Source: a virus
Lineage: Duplodnaviria > Caudoviricetes
IMG/VR virus record: IMGVR_UViG_3300028172_000069
Strand: one strand, 5' to 3'
Length of the DNA stretch: 64,000 bases
Part shown: positions 11,064 to 63,559 of the stretch, piece by piece
Layout of the letters: the number at the start of each line of letters is the position of its first letter
Numbering within the stretch: position 1 is the stretch's first letter
The notes under the pieces: model-generated
The model's database searches: none
Told to the model about the DNA's origin: nothing
What the model saw: the letters and a program-made list of their open reading frames with translations, nothing else
Position numbers and translations under genes: made by a program

Positions 11064-11073
11064 AATAAATTAG
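11064..11073 (-). promoter_or_regulatory. CTAATTTATT putative phage late-promoter motif (representative copy)
   Basis: Recurrent sense-oriented motif upstream of genes/RNAs; see findings. Confidence 0.45.
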
Positions 11074-28399: not shown

Positions 28400-28722
28400 A
28401 GTGTCCACTGTTTCCCGCACACCAGCACTGTCGCCCGAACAACACTGCGGTCTGCGGAGAGGCTGTAGACGTGCCTACTCAACGGGCCCTTCCCCCGTAC
28501 GCAACAACTGCCGAGCCGGAAAACCCTGGGCAGTTATCGGTAGTCTCCGCTTTCGCGGGCTCATGCTGGAGCTAGGCTCCGAATGGGTGCAGGCTCTTAC
28601 CCTGCTTGGTGTAGAGGCTCGGCGGCGCGGCGCTTGGGGAGGGCTGGCTTCAAGGAGCATGGCAGCTGGATGAGTGTCTACCAATGGTGCCTTACGGCTA
28701 CACGCATTACCTCTCACGAGGA
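28400..28722 (-). ncRNA. Putative structured ncRNA between tRNA and terminator
   Basis: Three GNRA hairpins on the minus strand, a 7-bp helix, no convincing ORF. Confidence 0.4.
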
Positions 28723-28729
28723 GAACAGT

Positions 28730-28803
28730 TGGGACGTCTGGGACTTGAACCCAGGACCACGCCGATTAACATTCCGGTGCTCTACCGACTGAGCTAACGT
28801 CCC
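28730..28803 (-). tRNA. Atypical tRNA-Asn(GTT) with tRNA-Lys-like body, no encoded CCA
   Basis: GGGACGT/ACGTCCC acceptor, D and T arms intact; anticodon arm CCGGA-ATGTTAA-TCGG is imperfect. Confidence 0.75.
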
Positions 28804-28804
28804 A

Positions 28805-29113
28805 TTAGTCTTTGAGTGCAACTCCGACACTCACTGCCAGACAGAACTTGCCATCGGGATTCGTGAAGAACGATCCGCCATAGGTGTAAGCCTGTCTGGT
28901 TTTGTTCTTGATCTTGCGCAAGTGATTCTTCATCAACTTGCGGATCGAGGAAAGAAGCAAGCGACGGTCGCTGGTGTCGTTGACCGCCAGCACTTCGTTG
29001 ACCGTGACATACTTGTCGCCGAGCTTCGGAACTTGACCCTGGTCCAAATGGACAATGTCCAATGAGCACGAGGTAAACAGCAGTTTGATTTCTTCCGCAG
29101 TCATCTGACTCAT
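28805..29113 (-). CDS. Hypothetical protein between tRNAs
   Basis: 102-aa ORF. Confidence 0.6.
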   Translation of the reverse strand: MSQMTAEEIKLLFTSCSLDIVHLDQGQVPKLGDKYVTVNEVLAVNDTSDRRLLLSSIRKLMKNHLRKIKNKTRQAYTYGGSFFTNPDGKFCLAVSVGVALKD

Positions 29114-29220
29114 GGATCAGTTTCCAAAGCAGCGTGTAGGCAGGGCCAGTAACCGGTAATACCGTCACTGCTCTGATGTACTAGCGAATAGCGTTCTATC
29201 AGAACTCTGGCCCACAAAAA

Positions 29221-29296
29221 TGGTAGGACGTCCGAGACTCGAACTCGGGACCCTCGGATTAAAAGTCCGGTGCTCTACCAACTGAGCTAACGTCCT
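29221..29296 (-). tRNA. tRNA-Lys(TTT)
   Basis: 76-nt cloverleaf, loop CTTTTAA, CCA encoded. Confidence 0.95.
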
Positions 29297-29478
29297 AGAA
29301 AACAATCCCGCTTGCACAGACGAGTGGGCTTCTGTACTTGTGAACAGAGTCAGGGCGGGTACCTGTGGTCATTGCCAATACAGCGCCGTCCACGAGTTTC
29401 AGGCCGCATCAACAATCTAACTCTGGTTCGCTACCTCGGGCACGGCCAGCTTTGCAGCGCCCACTGAGGTTTTGAATA

Positions 29479-29554
29479 TGGCTCCCGCTCCTGGACTCGA
29501 ACCAGGGACGCCACGGTTAACAGCCGTGTGCTCTACCGACTGAGCTAAGCGGGA
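29479..29554 (-). tRNA. tRNA-Asn(GTT)
   Basis: 76-nt canonical cloverleaf, CACGG-CTGTTAA-CCGTG, G73, CCA. Confidence 0.97.
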
Positions 29555-29728
29555 AGGGTAAAGTGTGCGGTTTCGTGCGCATCGCCAAGGATAAACGTGC
29601 AAATCGTATCTTGGCTAACAGGCACAGCTCGTTCAAATTGCGAAGCAGCCTCCGCGTACGGTCAGCGCTCTTTTACGTTTCCCAGTAATCCACCACAAGC
29701 TTGCTGGGTGTGCTCGCTTTGCAACGAA

Positions 29729-29944
29729 TCAGGCATTGCCGGTATACGCGACAAACACCTGCATGTTTTCTTTCACCTCGACAGGACTGCCTCGAGGTGT
29801 GAGGACACCACCGCCGTGACCTTTAACTGACCAGGTCACTGTGTACACCACGCTCGGGTCTCGACCGTCGAGTTTGACGGCTTCTTCGTAGCTGATGGTG
29901 CGGCAGACAAACTCATGCGGCTTTGCATTCACAAAAATTTGCAT
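29729..29944 (-). CDS. Stand-alone ubiquitin-like (multiubiquitin-type beta-grasp) protein
   Basis: IFVN.KPHE....ISYEE.VKL.....YTVTW....GGGVLTP.GS.VEVKENM.VFV matches the bacterial multi-Ubl pattern as recalled. Confidence 0.75.
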   Translation of the reverse strand: MQIFVNAKPHEFVCRTISYEEAVKLDGRDPSVVYTVTWSVKGHGGGVLTPRGSPVEVKENMQVFVAYTGNA

Positions 29945-29961
29945 GGCGGTGCTCTCGGATG

Positions 29962-30038
29962 TGGCGACTCCAACGGGACTCGAACCCGTGACCTCTGGCG
30001 TGACAGGCCAGCATTCTAACCGACTGAACTATGGAGCC
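29962..30038 (-). tRNA. tRNA-Asp(GTC) copy 2
   Basis: 77-nt cloverleaf, CTGTCAC loop, CCA. Confidence 0.97.
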
Positions 30039-30043
30039 GAAAG

Positions 30044-30120
30044 TGGCGACCCGGACGGGACTCGAACCCGTGACCTCTGGCGTGACAGGCCAGCATTCTA
30101 ACCGACTGAACTACCGGGTC
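30044..30120 (-). tRNA. tRNA-Asp(GTC) copy 1
   Basis: 77-nt cloverleaf, CTGTCAC loop, CCA. Confidence 0.97.
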
Positions 30121-30326
30121 TATGATCGTAGCTTGCTCAACAAATTAGCTATCTGCAATTTCGCGCTCGGCAGCATAAGGGCAATGCTGAGCCCGATAGG
30201 TGCGACGTGTGCGTACTTCACAAGTGTGTTGGTGAAATACAACGCAACACCGACTAGCACGTAGGCAGTCCAAACACACGCATCGTACCGCGTTTCGCAG
30301 AATGGCTTGAAGATTCGCTTGAGCAT
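30120..30326 (-). CDS. Small membrane protein
   Basis: 68 aa, two hydrophobic segments; stop codon overlaps the tRNA-Asp 5' G. Confidence 0.55.
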   Translation of the reverse strand: MLKRIFKPFCETRYDACVWTAYVLVGVALYFTNTLVKYAHVAPIGLSIALMLPSAKLQIANLLSKLRS

Positions 30327-30369
30327 GTGTATTACCAAAAGCAGAATTGTGTGGCTCTGCTTTACAGAA

Positions 30370-31161
30370 TTGGTGCCAGCAGGTAAACTTACCGCACGTA
30401 CTCGTTGCTGGGGCGGGCAACGTGGACCAGTGTGCGTACCAAGCAGCGTGGCATTACCTTATCGAACAGCTTGGGTGCCGTATTCCCAAACGCTCTATCT
30501 GACGTGCTGCATTTCATCGGCTCCGCGTAGGTACCAGACGAATGATTAGGTGCCTCAGACTCGTTACCGCGTCAGAACCAGAAGGAGATTAGAGTTCACC
30601 ATGTGCCAGGAGTTGAAATTGGGTAGCCCGGTCATTCGACCGTAGCATCTGTTCTCTATCCTGCGCGCAGCGGGCGATCCTGTAACGTCTCTTAAATTCT
30701 CAGTAAGAAGTCGAGCCTGAGGCGAAAAATGAAACCCACCTAGAAGATGGAAGGCTTATGCTAATGTCGCGGCGGAATTCCTGCTGTCACTACCCAAAGC
30801 TGAAGGGCTTGATCTGGCTGGCTCGAAGCTGCGTTGTGTTGGCTTTCTTTCCTTTACACTTCTAGGTGGGAGTGGTTGCGACTTCCGAAGAAGCCGAGCG
30901 AGCAACTGATTCCTGGGTTAGAGGCCCAACACCGCATCCAGTAATACAGAAGGCAACCGTGCGCTTGATAGGCGATCACTCTAGTCCCTTGTACGTTGCG
31001 CAGAGACAAACGCAACGGCACGCCAACGCAAGACTCACGCGGCCTATGCTCCGCAATTCATCCATTAACCACAGCAGGAAATTCCGTGGTGACGGTCCGG
31101 GAAATCGCCCCTTTGACCGCTGAACTCAGCCGCACAGCTTATCAGGCCGTTGGCTGTCGCA
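30370..31161 (-). ncRNA. Putative large structured ncRNA downstream of the hammerhead (3' boundary uncertain, 30370-30550)
   Basis: Long-range 15-bp and 12-bp helices, UUCG hairpin, no credible minus-strand ORF. Confidence 0.6.
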
Positions 31162-31223
31162 GACTCCGTAGAGTTTCGTGGGCCTTTCACCCATACACGG
31201 ACTTGAACCGTTCATCAGTGCGA
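31157..31223 (-). ncRNA. Type I hammerhead ribozyme with an inserted hairpin
   Basis: TCGCA-CTGATGA-[ACGG-TTCAAGT-CCGT]-G..stem II..C-GAAA-CTC-TACG-GAG-TC-TGCGA; full core plus stems I and III. Confidence 0.82.
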
Positions 31224-31239
31224 GTAATGAATTAGCATT

Positions 31240-31500
31240 TCGAGATTGGCCTGCACCGTACATCTGGCTTCGTGCAAGCCTCTCCTCGATTCAGCAACCG
31301 CAGCCAATGGCGGCGCCTTTGTGGTTTGTGCGGGATGGGATCGCTGGCCGGATCAGGTACCCATCCCTATCTACATCGCGCAGCCTGACTTCCGGCAGGC
31401 GATGGTTCTGTTTGTGGTTGCAGCGCTTCACCCGATTCCGGCGGGTGTTGCACTGTCTGGAGCCTGACGCTGCACAGGCTCAAAATGAAGATCAGCAAGG
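31240..31500 (-). ncRNA. Putative structured RNA (dense hairpin array)
   Basis: Four 6-8 bp GC-rich hairpins in 150 nt; non-coding. Confidence 0.45.
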
Positions 31501-31507
31501 TGTGTCC

Positions 31508-32008
31508 TTACGCAGGTTGTTCGACGTGCTCGGTGAGACGGCCGAATGCCAGTTTGTGAACAGCAAACAGTTCGGTACCGTCTGCACCGTTGAAGGCGCG
31601 CTTGACGCTGGCGTGCACCACGTTTGCCAGTTTGAGATACTTGACAGTTTCACCATCAGCTCCAAACTGACGCAGGATGATCGCGTCAAGCTTGGTGGTC
31701 TTGAAGGCTTCGATACCGTCGAGCACTTCCTGTTCGGCTGGAACGAAGTCGCTGAACGCAAACTCCGCAGCTTGCATCATTGCACCCGCAGCAGGATCAG
31801 ACGCAAAGACGAAATCTTGTTCGGTGATCTTCACAGTTCTCAGGTTCAGCTGGAGTGCCTGAATGGCATTCACCAGAACTGGCGCCACTTCCTGAGAACA
31901 GTCGATCCGCCACAGGTCAAAGTTGTCGTTCAATGCGATCTGTTTGATCGCGGTAACGTCATCCAAACTAACCTTGCCTGCAACGGTAAGCTGTACTGAA
32001 TCCGACAT
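31508..32008 (-). CDS. Hypothetical protein
   Basis: GGAG RBS before MSDSVQL; CTAATTCATT 20 nt upstream. Confidence 0.7.
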   Translation of the reverse strand: MSDSVQLTVAGKVSLDDVTAIKQIALNDNFDLWRIDCSQEVAPVLVNAIQALQLNLRTVKITEQDFVFASDPAAGAMMQAAEFAFSDFVPAEQEVLDGIEAFKTTKLDAIILRQFGADGETVKYLKLANVVHASVKRAFNGADGTELFAVHKLAFGRLTEHVEQPA

Positions 32009-32047
32009 AGCAATCTCCGTGCTTGTCAATGAATTAGCAATCGCGGT

Positions 32048-32713
32048 TTACACTTCCGCCTTGCGTGGAAGGATGATCCAGTCGTTGGCGGTCACGTCCG
32101 ACTGACTGGCAACCCAGGCAACGCAGTCACCCTGCGCCGTGTACATATCAATGTGGTCACGGTAGCTGATGACCTTGCCCTCTGGGAAGATGCTCGCCAA
32201 CGGCGCGCGGTTGACCGTGAAGGTCGACGCAGGCACGTAGTAGATGAACATATTCTTGCCGTTCCAGTTCTGGCGGCAGGCACGATAGCCAGCCTTGATC
32301 GCTTCGACAGCAGTGCCGAAAGACTGCGGCGCTTGGCTTTCAACCAGGGAATCGAAATCCTGAACTTCTGGGAAGCACGGGTGGTGATCGTCGGCGCGAC
32401 GGGCGAATGCGACCTTGAGCGTGATCGTGGTCTGCGGCACTGGCGGAACTTTGGTGAGCAACACCTGCGATACGTGACCTTCGAGGAAGTACACGGCAGT
32501 CGCATCACCCTTGAGTTCGCGCAGCTTGAGCTCCAGACGTGGAATCACCTCACGCACATCGTCAGTATCGACGGTGGCGGATACGTCGGTGTAGTCAACG
32601 ACGCGGGTGTTACCTGCGACGTCCATGTAGGTACCGTGATCGAGGCCGCGGATCACATGCAGACCCAGCGGCTTCAGGATGTTGAGCAACAAATCTTGTT
32701 CGAGCGGAATCAT
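32048..32713 (-). CDS. Two-domain protein with C-terminal Tad2-like (DUF2829) domain
   Basis: SFGTAVEAIKAG....R.NWNGKNMF...WVASQSDVTANDW. Confidence 0.82.
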   Translation of the reverse strand: MIPLEQDLLLNILKPLGLHVIRGLDHGTYMDVAGNTRVVDYTDVSATVDTDDVREVIPRLELKLRELKGDATAVYFLEGHVSQVLLTKVPPVPQTTITLKVAFARRADDHHPCFPEVQDFDSLVESQAPQSFGTAVEAIKAGYRACRQNWNGKNMFIYYVPASTFTVNRAPLASIFPEGKVISYRDHIDMYTAQGDCVAWVASQSDVTANDWIILPRKAEV

Positions 32714-32720
32714 GTTTGCC

Positions 32721-33374
32721 TCACAGTAGGTTGTCGAGTTCGTCACAGATGAAACGATCGCGGTGGAGCTCCATCGGGAAAGAGTCACGCACACACTTGA
32801 GTGCATACATTATCTTTTCCATGGTAGGTTCGGTAAGCAACTGAACCAGCATGACACGTGGCGCGAGCAGCGTCAGGTAGCTGCGCTTCCACGGCATTCT
32901 GCGCGCCATCACAACATCGCGGACGAGTTGTAGGTAGGAACCCCACTGCACCAGATCGTCATACAGTGCGCCAACGTTCAGAGCCTTCAACGTGCTCTGG
33001 TAGAGCTGGTAGCCACGATAGATGCGCCGCGCATTAGGATCGAGTCGATTCATCCGCAGGAACATCAGCGCCTCGGATGAATGCTCAGGCCTGAACAGCA
33101 TGAAGTGGCGGGCGTTGCAGACGTGCATGAACTGCCGGCGCTCAAAGAAGTCGCGGGTGTAGTCATGCGCCTCGATGAACAGGACTTCCGCGCTCGGGTC
33201 AACCCACGGGCTCAAGGCGTTTTCGAGATATGCCTCAGCGTTCCGACCTGCATCAGGCGGAGCACACGACACCGTCGCAGTTGATCGCAGGTAGTTGCCA
33301 AACTCCAGAGCGTTGAGTCCAACAACCATGAGCGGGCGATTGAGTTCTTCGACTCTGGCCAGTTGGAAGTTCAT
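32721..33374 (-). CDS. Hypothetical protein
   Basis: ATGA overlap; MNFQLARVEE. Confidence 0.65.
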   Translation of the reverse strand: MNFQLARVEELNRPLMVVGLNALEFGNYLRSTATVSCAPPDAGRNAEAYLENALSPWVDPSAEVLFIEAHDYTRDFFERRQFMHVCNARHFMLFRPEHSSEALMFLRMNRLDPNARRIYRGYQLYQSTLKALNVGALYDDLVQWGSYLQLVRDVVMARRMPWKRSYLTLLAPRVMLVQLLTEPTMEKIMYALKCVRDSFPMELHRDRFICDELDNLL

Positions 33375-63365: not shown

Positions 63366-63559
63366 TTCGGCCTCACCATCGGCGCGCGGCCTAGCCTGCC
63401 TAGCTGCATAAGCGAGCGGCCGCACCGTTTCAAGCGAGGGTGAGTAATCGCCCTCGTGCGTCACAAGTTTGCGCATACTAATTCATTGTATGCTGAAAAC
63501 GCAATTCGACCCCGATAAGAATTCGCGGTCTAATCCCCATTCGAACAGGAATTACTGGC

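Follow-up and report, generated by a model that had tools for sequence, protein, structure and literature searches.

A 67-nucleotide (nt) element on the minus strand (31223..31157) of the Caudoviricetes record IMGVR_UViG_3300028172_000069 from IMG/VR, a stretch of 64,000 nt that is referred to here as the window, is probably a self-cleaving variant of the type I hammerhead ribozyme. In this putative variant, domain II forms a three-way junction, and the ribozyme would cut transcripts in the transfer RNA (tRNA) regions of phages. The element belongs to a small, previously unannotated family that is found mostly in jumbo phages.

An earlier note on this DNA had listed a stem I, a hammerhead core, a T-loop hairpin, the sequence GAAA, a stem III and a C17 on the minus strand, and inspection of the sequence finds every one of these parts in 31223..31157, at the positions given there. 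In particular, stem I is formed by UCGCA (31219..31223) and UGCGA (31157..31161), and its 5′ strand leads into the core CUGAUGA (C3-U4-G5-A6-U7-G8-A9; 31212..31218). Directly after A9 stands hairpin 1 (31197..31211), which is composed of the 4-base-pair (bp) stem ACGG/CCGU and the T-loop UUCAAGU closed by G-C. A variable linker, GUA (31194..31196), separates it from hairpin 2 (31179..31193), which has a U-GGG/CCC-A stem and a 7-nt loop, UGAAAGG. A C at the C11.1 position (31178) lies immediately 5′ of G12 and is followed by G12-A13-A14-A15.1 (GAAA; 31174..31177) and by stem III (ACUC/GAGU with a UACG loop; 31163..31174), in which A15.1 (31174) pairs with U16.1 (31163). The scissile bond predicted from hammerhead chemistry lies after C17 (31162) and before U1.1 (31161), and the cut between 31162 and 31161 proposed in the note is consistent, as a position for a predicted cleavage, with C17 at 31162. 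The motif CTAATTCATT, a candidate phage promoter element also pointed out in the note, is found on the same strand at 31235-31226, 2 nt upstream of stem I. A descriptor scan of the whole window returns 31223..31157 as its sole hammerhead-like site.

Taken alone, the site in the window is weak evidence and is not convincingly beyond chance. A descriptor that requires the core, GAAA, a stem III of at least 4 bp closed by A-U, a non-G residue and a stem I of at least 5 bp, and that leaves stem II free, finds 0.01 matches per window by chance (400 Markov-simulated windows of 64 kilobases (kb)). The site rises above chance because it is conserved, with compensatory changes, in independent phages. 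Relatives were sought by pattern scans of IMG/VR, JGI metagenomes and GTDB genomes and then by covariance-model (CM) searches, and nine distinct family members were recovered, the window included, nearly all of them from phages of 170-310 kb. The window member has two near-identical copies (L001 and L002). The others come from Pseudomonas phage PaBG (L003; NC_022096.1, 121,562-121,644), a 310-kb phage with terminal repeats (L124), two metagenome contigs (L063 and L059), a 219-kb phage (L005), a 172-kb provirus (L015) that is identical to a contig of Paraburkholderia sp. BCC1886 (L042), Burkholderia phage vB_BgluM-SURPRISE13 (L193; SURPRISE13 below) and Ralstonia phage RSF1 (L194). The window, PaBG, L124 and L063 are compact members; L005, L015, SURPRISE13 and RSF1 are long members; and L059 is a fifth longer member, with provisional outer stems. 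Since an alignment of all members with MAFFT misplaced insertions, CM-based alignments were used.

Each phage genome searched carries one copy. The flanks are non-homologous between phages, and matches are limited to the element and the tRNAs; thus, the element is conserved as a unit. A blastn search of the 1.5-kb region against GenBank phages gave no match. The family is rare. A pattern scan of 185,579 prokaryote genomes yielded one copy, in the Paraburkholderia sp. BCC1886 provirus (the same as L015), the remaining 33 matches being due to chance, and a CM search of 150 further genomes of the bacterial family of this strain found nothing. The pattern matches L004, L007, L009-L014, L016-L022, L178, L163 and most of L057-L066 were discarded as chance or real tRNAs. 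The IMG/VR contigs L006, L008 and L011 contain true phage tRNAs, in which CUGAUGA plus T arm corresponds to the end of the anticodon stem, the variable loop and the T arm; therefore, the 5′ half of the motif alone is no evidence of a hammerhead.

The sequences CUGANGA and GAAA and the C that precedes GAAA are invariant in all nine members. N7, the single core position left free in hammerheads, alone varies, being U in five members, C in two and A in two. In a CM-based alignment of the four compact members (alignment A4), 95.6% of the cells are paired, compensatory changes occur in 11 of 17 pairs, and none of 500 shuffles is as good; in controls in which the partner was slid by 1-3 columns, pairing amounts to 29-47%. 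RNAalifold applied to the same four members gives the same structure as the CM alignment. Compensatory changes affect four of the five pairs of stem I and three of the four pairs of stem III. Stem I is UCGCA/UGCGA in the window, GCGGA/UCCGC in PaBG and CAUUA/UAAUG in L124, and, relative to the window, PaBG and L124 swap all five stem I pairs for other pairs; in L063 the stem is CACC/GGUG with a C-A mismatch adjoining the core. Stem III is ACUC/GAGU in two compact members and AUCAC/GUGAU and ACCAC/GUGGU in the other two, and the A15.1-U16.1 pair is fixed in all four. Position 17, directly 3′ of U16.1, is C, A, C and C in the window, PaBG, L124 and L063, respectively, and never G. The complete hammerhead core with stems I and III and a non-G residue 17 that the note had recognized is thereby confirmed, with a core invariant except for N7 and, in the compact members, two covarying stems.

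The family departs from ordinary hammerheads between A9 and G12, where all nine members carry two separate covarying hairpins with 7-nt loops, connected by a linker (3, 5, 5, 13, 14, 37, 41, 42 and 46 nt in length) and followed by the C. Hairpin 1 always begins directly after A9, so that the T-loop hairpin noticed at this place in the window is a constant, covarying feature of all nine members. Its stem is 4 bp long (3 bp in L063), and the closing G-C pair of its 7-nt loop is invariant; the first pair is G-C in four members, U-A in two, and A-U, C-G and G-A in one each. The loop is UUCAAGU in six members and UUCGAGU, UUCGAGG and, in RSF1, UGCAAGU in one each, which gives the consensus U-K-C-R-A-G-K. 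Hairpin 2 has 4 bp in all nine members and the loop UGAAAGG, with UGAAAAG in RSF1 as the only exception. Its outer pair is U-A or C-G (with one mismatch), and its next pair is G-C or A-U; as this second difference separates the closely related sister phages SURPRISE13 and RSF1, it represents an independent event. When both hairpins are aligned over the nine members (alignment A6), 97.2% of the cells are paired, 18 cells show double changes, and none of 500 shuffles is as good. The linker often carries a hairpin of its own, e.g., GGC-GAAA-GCC in PaBG. On the evidence of this covariation, stem II is replaced, at the level of secondary structure, by a three-way junction, which becomes a four-way junction in members whose linker folds. 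The base after A9 is G in five of the nine members; it may therefore be hairpin 1 that truly corresponds to stem II (with G10.1-C11.1 in four members), in which case hairpin 2 and the C would be an extra element.

Several observations speak against a self-cleaving hammerhead. The note had proposed an Infernal search with hammerhead models, and this check went the other way: none of the Rfam 15 hammerhead models (RF00163, RF00008, RF02275-7) matches the window region 30100-32000, even at an E value of up to 10. The Rfam hammerhead models also do not match L002, L003 and L005 at E values of up to 1 or four phage regions at the gathering score; across the window, Rfam 15 returns at that score five tRNAs and nothing else. 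Neither at the gathering score nor at permissive thresholds does any other Rfam family match the site. Single-sequence folding fails to yield the hammerhead fold at the window site, where the minimum-free-energy fold is a different one (z = -0.79) that pairs part of the core otherwise. A canonical single stem II, abutting both A9 and G12, is absent from the family, and the invariant C before GAAA has no conserved partner. In the window, the first pair after A9 is A-U and not G-C, which alters the classical A9/G10.1 metal site, and a transcription start a few bases downstream of CTAATTCATT could leave stem I incomplete. Finally, no convincing stems I and III can be assigned in L005, L015, SURPRISE13 and RSF1.

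These four long members have linkers of 37-46 nt, a hairpin upstream of the core and, downstream, GUA, a hairpin and ACCCGC. The CM proposes a weak GUU-A solution for L015. For L059 there is a provisional hammerhead-compatible solution (GUU-U, GCUC/GAGC and a long stem III), together with a competing pairing. An energy-guided search for stems I and III of the long members, in which the folding constraint was not enforced, gave no consistent solution, and a type III (permuted) reading was rejected, the upstream hairpins lying 9-16 nt or more from C3. In L005, L015, L059, SURPRISE13 and RSF1, GAAA is followed by GUA, then by a hairpin of the UAGGA...UCCUA type and then by ACCCGC, and each has an upstream hairpin; the hammerhead-like core of these five may be embedded in a larger conserved RNA. 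The long members may be organised differently, or they may be non-cleaving.

It is mainly this lack of clear outer stems in the long members that lends some weight to an alternative, which nevertheless appears unlikely, namely that the element is a conserved structured RNA without self-cleavage (a platform for the tRNA elbow, for a tRNA-processing or tRNA-modifying enzyme or for a phage protein) or a decayed hammerhead with another role. Domain II is unlike that of every described hammerhead, the Rfam models are silent, and tRNA genes lie nearby. Moreover, four to five long members have no clear stems I and III yet keep the core and both hairpins, which suggests selection on the central module, and the loops are nearly invariant, as would be expected of a specific tertiary or protein contact. 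However, the conservation follows the pattern of a catalytic hammerhead: 11 core bases are fixed, variation is confined to N7 and to position 17, which is never G, A15.1-U16.1 is fixed, and compensatory change maintains stems I and III in four independent phages.

A second alternative concerns the course of domain II. According to the earlier note, the GGGUGAAAGGCCC hairpin, with G10.1-C11.1 and a U-A pair as its closing pairs, constitutes stem II, and the T-loop hairpin is inserted between A9 and G10.1. The window itself allows the pairs G31196-C31178 and U31195-A31179 (or U31193-A31179), and a 3-bp helix GUG/CAC abutting G12 is compatible with all nine sequences by means of G-U wobbles. Nevertheless, this arrangement is improbable, as the proposed closing pairs outside GGG/CCC are not conserved in the relatives: the outer G is absent in PaBG, L063, L124 and others, and its place is taken by AU in PaBG, AUUAUA in L063 and AUCAA in L124. 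The GUG/CAC alternative also leaves the changes on the 5′ side unexplained. The 3′ changes of A to G and of C to U are matched by 5′ changes of U to C and of G to A, and the matching, which distinguishes SURPRISE13 from RSF1, favours a conserved hairpin N-RGG[UGAAAGG]CCY-N′ that apparently leaves the invariant C before GAAA unpaired. In addition, the base after A9, which is G in five of nine members, is paired inside hairpin 1.

The two-hairpin reading of domain II has no counterpart among the natural hammerhead variants of Perreault et al. 2011 (PMC3088659). These include A6C, an insertion after A6 (A6a), U13a, two-base insertions near C3 (G2a/C2b), a U10.1-U11.1 mismatch and stems II of 1-2 bp, and they show that active natural hammerheads tolerate small core insertions and a weak or mismatched stem II; the core insertions described there are of 1-2 nt, and no hairpin or junction in domain II is described (PMC3088659). 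The window family shares with the type I hammerheads of phages and prophages (RF00163, clan CL00010; PMC3088659) the 11 core nucleotides, the freedom of N7 and of position 17 (never G), the closure of stem III by A15.1-U16.1, an open-ended stem I and a location in the intergenic parts of phage genomes, either in tRNA regions or between genes of the same strand. It differs from them in its two hairpins with 7-nt loops, its variable linker and its unpaired C in place of stem II, and it is not scored by any Rfam hammerhead model. A description of a hammerhead with a two-hairpin or T-loop domain II was not found in the open-access literature, and the PaBG genome paper mentions no ribozyme (PMC7412058); this variant is apparently undescribed.

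The loops of the two hairpins point to a possible tertiary role. The motif of the tRNA T arm is G53-T54-Psi55-C56-R57-A58-N-N-C61. Hairpin 1 resembles this arm in its G-C-closed, 7-nt UUCRAGU loop, and T-loops with exactly this loop sequence occur in tRNAs of the window, e.g., GGGUUCAAGUCCC at 28730-28803. Unlike a T arm, it has a stem of 4 instead of 5 bp and is accompanied by no acceptor, D or anticodon arm, and the UGCAAGU loop of RSF1 fits the general T-loop consensus but not the TPsiC sequence of tRNA. At the level of sequence, both loops match the T-loop pentanucleotide U-N-N-R-A (UUCAA, UUCGA or UGCAA in loop 1 and UGAAA in loop 2) and are closed by G-C in all nine members. The T-loop named in the earlier note is therefore retained for hairpin 1, whereas the fit of the second loop to the same consensus had been overlooked. 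In the L1 stalk of 23S ribosomal RNA (rRNA), two hairpin loops that belong to a three-way junction are employed. Paired T-loops, each of which occupies the stacking gap of the other, dock the tRNA elbow in the L1 stalk, RNase P and T-box leaders (PMC4810234). The window family resembles this interdigitated double T-loop (23S rRNA L1 stalk, RNase P, T-box stem I; PMC4810234), in sequence, in that UUCAA and UGAAA fit U-N-N-R-A in neighbouring elements of one junction; unlike in those RNAs, the context here, domain II of a ribozyme, is new.

The two hairpins have stems of equal length, a feature preserved in all nine members, which is compatible with side-by-side packing. The two equal-sized hairpins would then pack as the T- and D-loops do in tRNA or as paired T-loops do in the L1 stalk, and this packing would supply the tertiary bracing that contacts between loops I and II give to ordinary hammerheads. 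Alternatively, loop 2 could act on loop 1 through its GG, in the role of D-loop G18-G19. A 4-bp kissing interaction between the loops (UUCA with UGAA) is a possible minor alternative that could form in eight members; the change to UGCA in RSF1 is uncompensated and weighs against it. In the same phage, the changes of U2 to G in loop 1 and of G6 to A in loop 2 are possibly correlated. A more far-reaching proposal, which must be regarded as quite improbable, is that the double T-loop module serves to dock a tRNA or pre-tRNA at its elbow, or that RNase P or tRNA-modifying enzymes recognise the module itself as a tRNA elbow, so that hammerhead cleavage in the tRNA regions of phages would be switched by tRNA; if true, this would be a natural tRNA-sensing self-cleaving ribozyme.

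That the site is a chance look-alike or the remnant of a tRNA gene (variable loop plus T arm) beside a tRNA array can be dismissed as highly improbable, since, despite the chance rate of 0.01 per window, the real phage tRNAs with CUGAUGA and a T arm (L006, L008, L011) and the failure of the Rfam hammerhead models, there are eight other diverged copies with compensatory changes and unrelated flanks, the differing stems and flanks exclude recent copies of one sequence, acceptor and anticodon arms are absent, and neither ARAGORN nor the Rfam tRNA model RF00005 calls a tRNA at 31157-31235.

The genomic setting is consistent with a role in transcript processing. The element in the window lies in approx. 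1.4 kb without a convincing open reading frame (ORF), 285 nt downstream of the last gene, and a tRNA array (Asp-Asp-Asn-Lys-Asn) begins 1,040 nt further downstream on the same strand. The approx. 1 kb between the cut site and the first tRNA-Asp (30130-31161, minus strand) contains no convincing ORF and has no sequence homology in the other ribozyme-carrying phages. PaBG offers a comparable case: its element sits inside the tRNA cluster, where 1.5 kb without annotation separates tRNA-Thr from tRNA-Ala/Lys/Asp/Lys. In each of the five IMG/VR genomes examined, the element shares its strand with tRNA genes 0.5-8 kb away; in the three besides the window and PaBG, the same-strand tRNAs are at 0.5, 1.6 and 7.9 kb. 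The elements of L063, SURPRISE13 and RSF1 stand between same-strand protein genes, and that of L063 fills a short gap between ORFs.

Exact copies of CTAATTCATT occur in the window at 31226 (minus), 32028-32037 (minus) and 63478-63487 (plus), where approx. 0.06-0.1 would be expected, and a copy with one mismatch is found at 11064-11073 (minus). All four sites fall between genes. The copies at 32028 and 11064 each precede a start codon by 20-30 nt, that at 63478 stands at the head of a divergent region, and the extended consensus of the motif is AT-GCTAATTCATTG. Because the motif recurs between genes and precedes two start codons at this distance, it is plausible that CTAATTCATT is a phage-specific promoter situated just upstream of the ribozyme. 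No sigma-70 consensus promoter is present at the ribozyme site. It has been reported that phages of the PaBG group encode their own sigma-70-like factor (PMC7412058), a finding made on that group and not on the window phage.

The simplest function suggested by this arrangement is cis-cleavage of a polycistronic or tRNA-precursor transcript. The RNA would cut itself after C17, between 31162 and 31161, leaving a 2′,3′-cyclic phosphate on the short 5′ piece that bears the ribozyme and a 5′-OH on the downstream RNA, which would comprise approx. 1 kb free of ORFs and then the tRNA array; in PaBG, the corresponding cut is predicted at 121,636/121,637. Should CTAATTCATT be a promoter, self-cleavage would shorten the primary transcript at its 5′ end and thereby produce a 5′-OH on a long downstream RNA. 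In relatives such as L063, the element between same-strand genes would split a polycistronic RNA. A comparable system is provided by the Theta ribozymes, which are small and self-cleaving and lie within the tRNA regions of phages, where they are presumed to process transcripts that contain tRNAs (PMC10879173). The window family, which is predicted to be self-cleaving, would likewise be a small ribozyme of the phage tRNA neighbourhood; however, the Theta ribozymes belong to the class resembling the hepatitis delta virus (HDV) ribozyme and directly adjoin tRNAs, whereas the window family lies 0.5-8 kb from the nearest tRNA and, in some cases, between protein genes.

The region is contained in 14 soil metatranscriptome runs, whose contigs cover the phage continuously and at high depth across the site, although contigs cannot show RNA ends and may include DNA. 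In four of the runs (X14, X17, X18 and X20; window 28500-33000), contigs reach 190-230 kb and word depths range from hundreds to thousands; the explanation is either extreme activity of the phage or DNA in these metatranscriptome-labelled libraries. The tRNA array (28728-30120) has spacers of approx. 400 nt between some of its tRNAs. The order and number of the tRNAs vary among the near-identical window, L001 and L002, with one or two tRNA-Asp and with Lys directly after Asn, and metatranscriptome contigs show alternative joins of 30074 to 29269 and of 29547 to 30044. The array is undergoing rearrangement within the phage population.

Additional features were observed near the ribozymes. Directly downstream of the PaBG ribozyme, L003 3510-3575 (PaBG approx. 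121,651-121,716) holds a second element, closed by GCUCC/GGAGC, which contains UGGAUGAG, the T-loop-like GGGUUCAAGUAC and a 6-bp hairpin with a 7-nt loop; it receives neither a tRNA nor an Rfam call. The PaBG tRNA-Ala(UGC) (L187 10696-10789; PaBG 122,295-122,388) is 94 nt long, an unusual length for its isoacceptor, and could contain an insertion or intron. In the window, the ORF at 32048-32806 (minus strand), two genes upstream of the ribozyme region, encodes a C-terminal domain resembling Tad2 (Thoeris anti-defence 2; E = 1.6e-21).

The family explains why such copies have escaped Rfam-based annotation, and phage hammerheads are therefore probably under-counted. Members are carried by cultured phages, namely PaBG on P. 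aeruginosa PAO1, RSF1 on Ralstonia and SURPRISE13 on Burkholderia glumae, which makes activity, in vivo processing and the role of the ribozyme in the tRNA regions of jumbo phages directly testable. Among small ribozymes, the hammerhead has been studied best; its junction of three helices has been regarded as fixed, and the natural core variants described so far are single-base changes or insertions of 1-2 nt. If the proposed reading is true, the catalytic core can accommodate a branch on its helix II side, and a T-loop module can take over the role of tertiary bracing.

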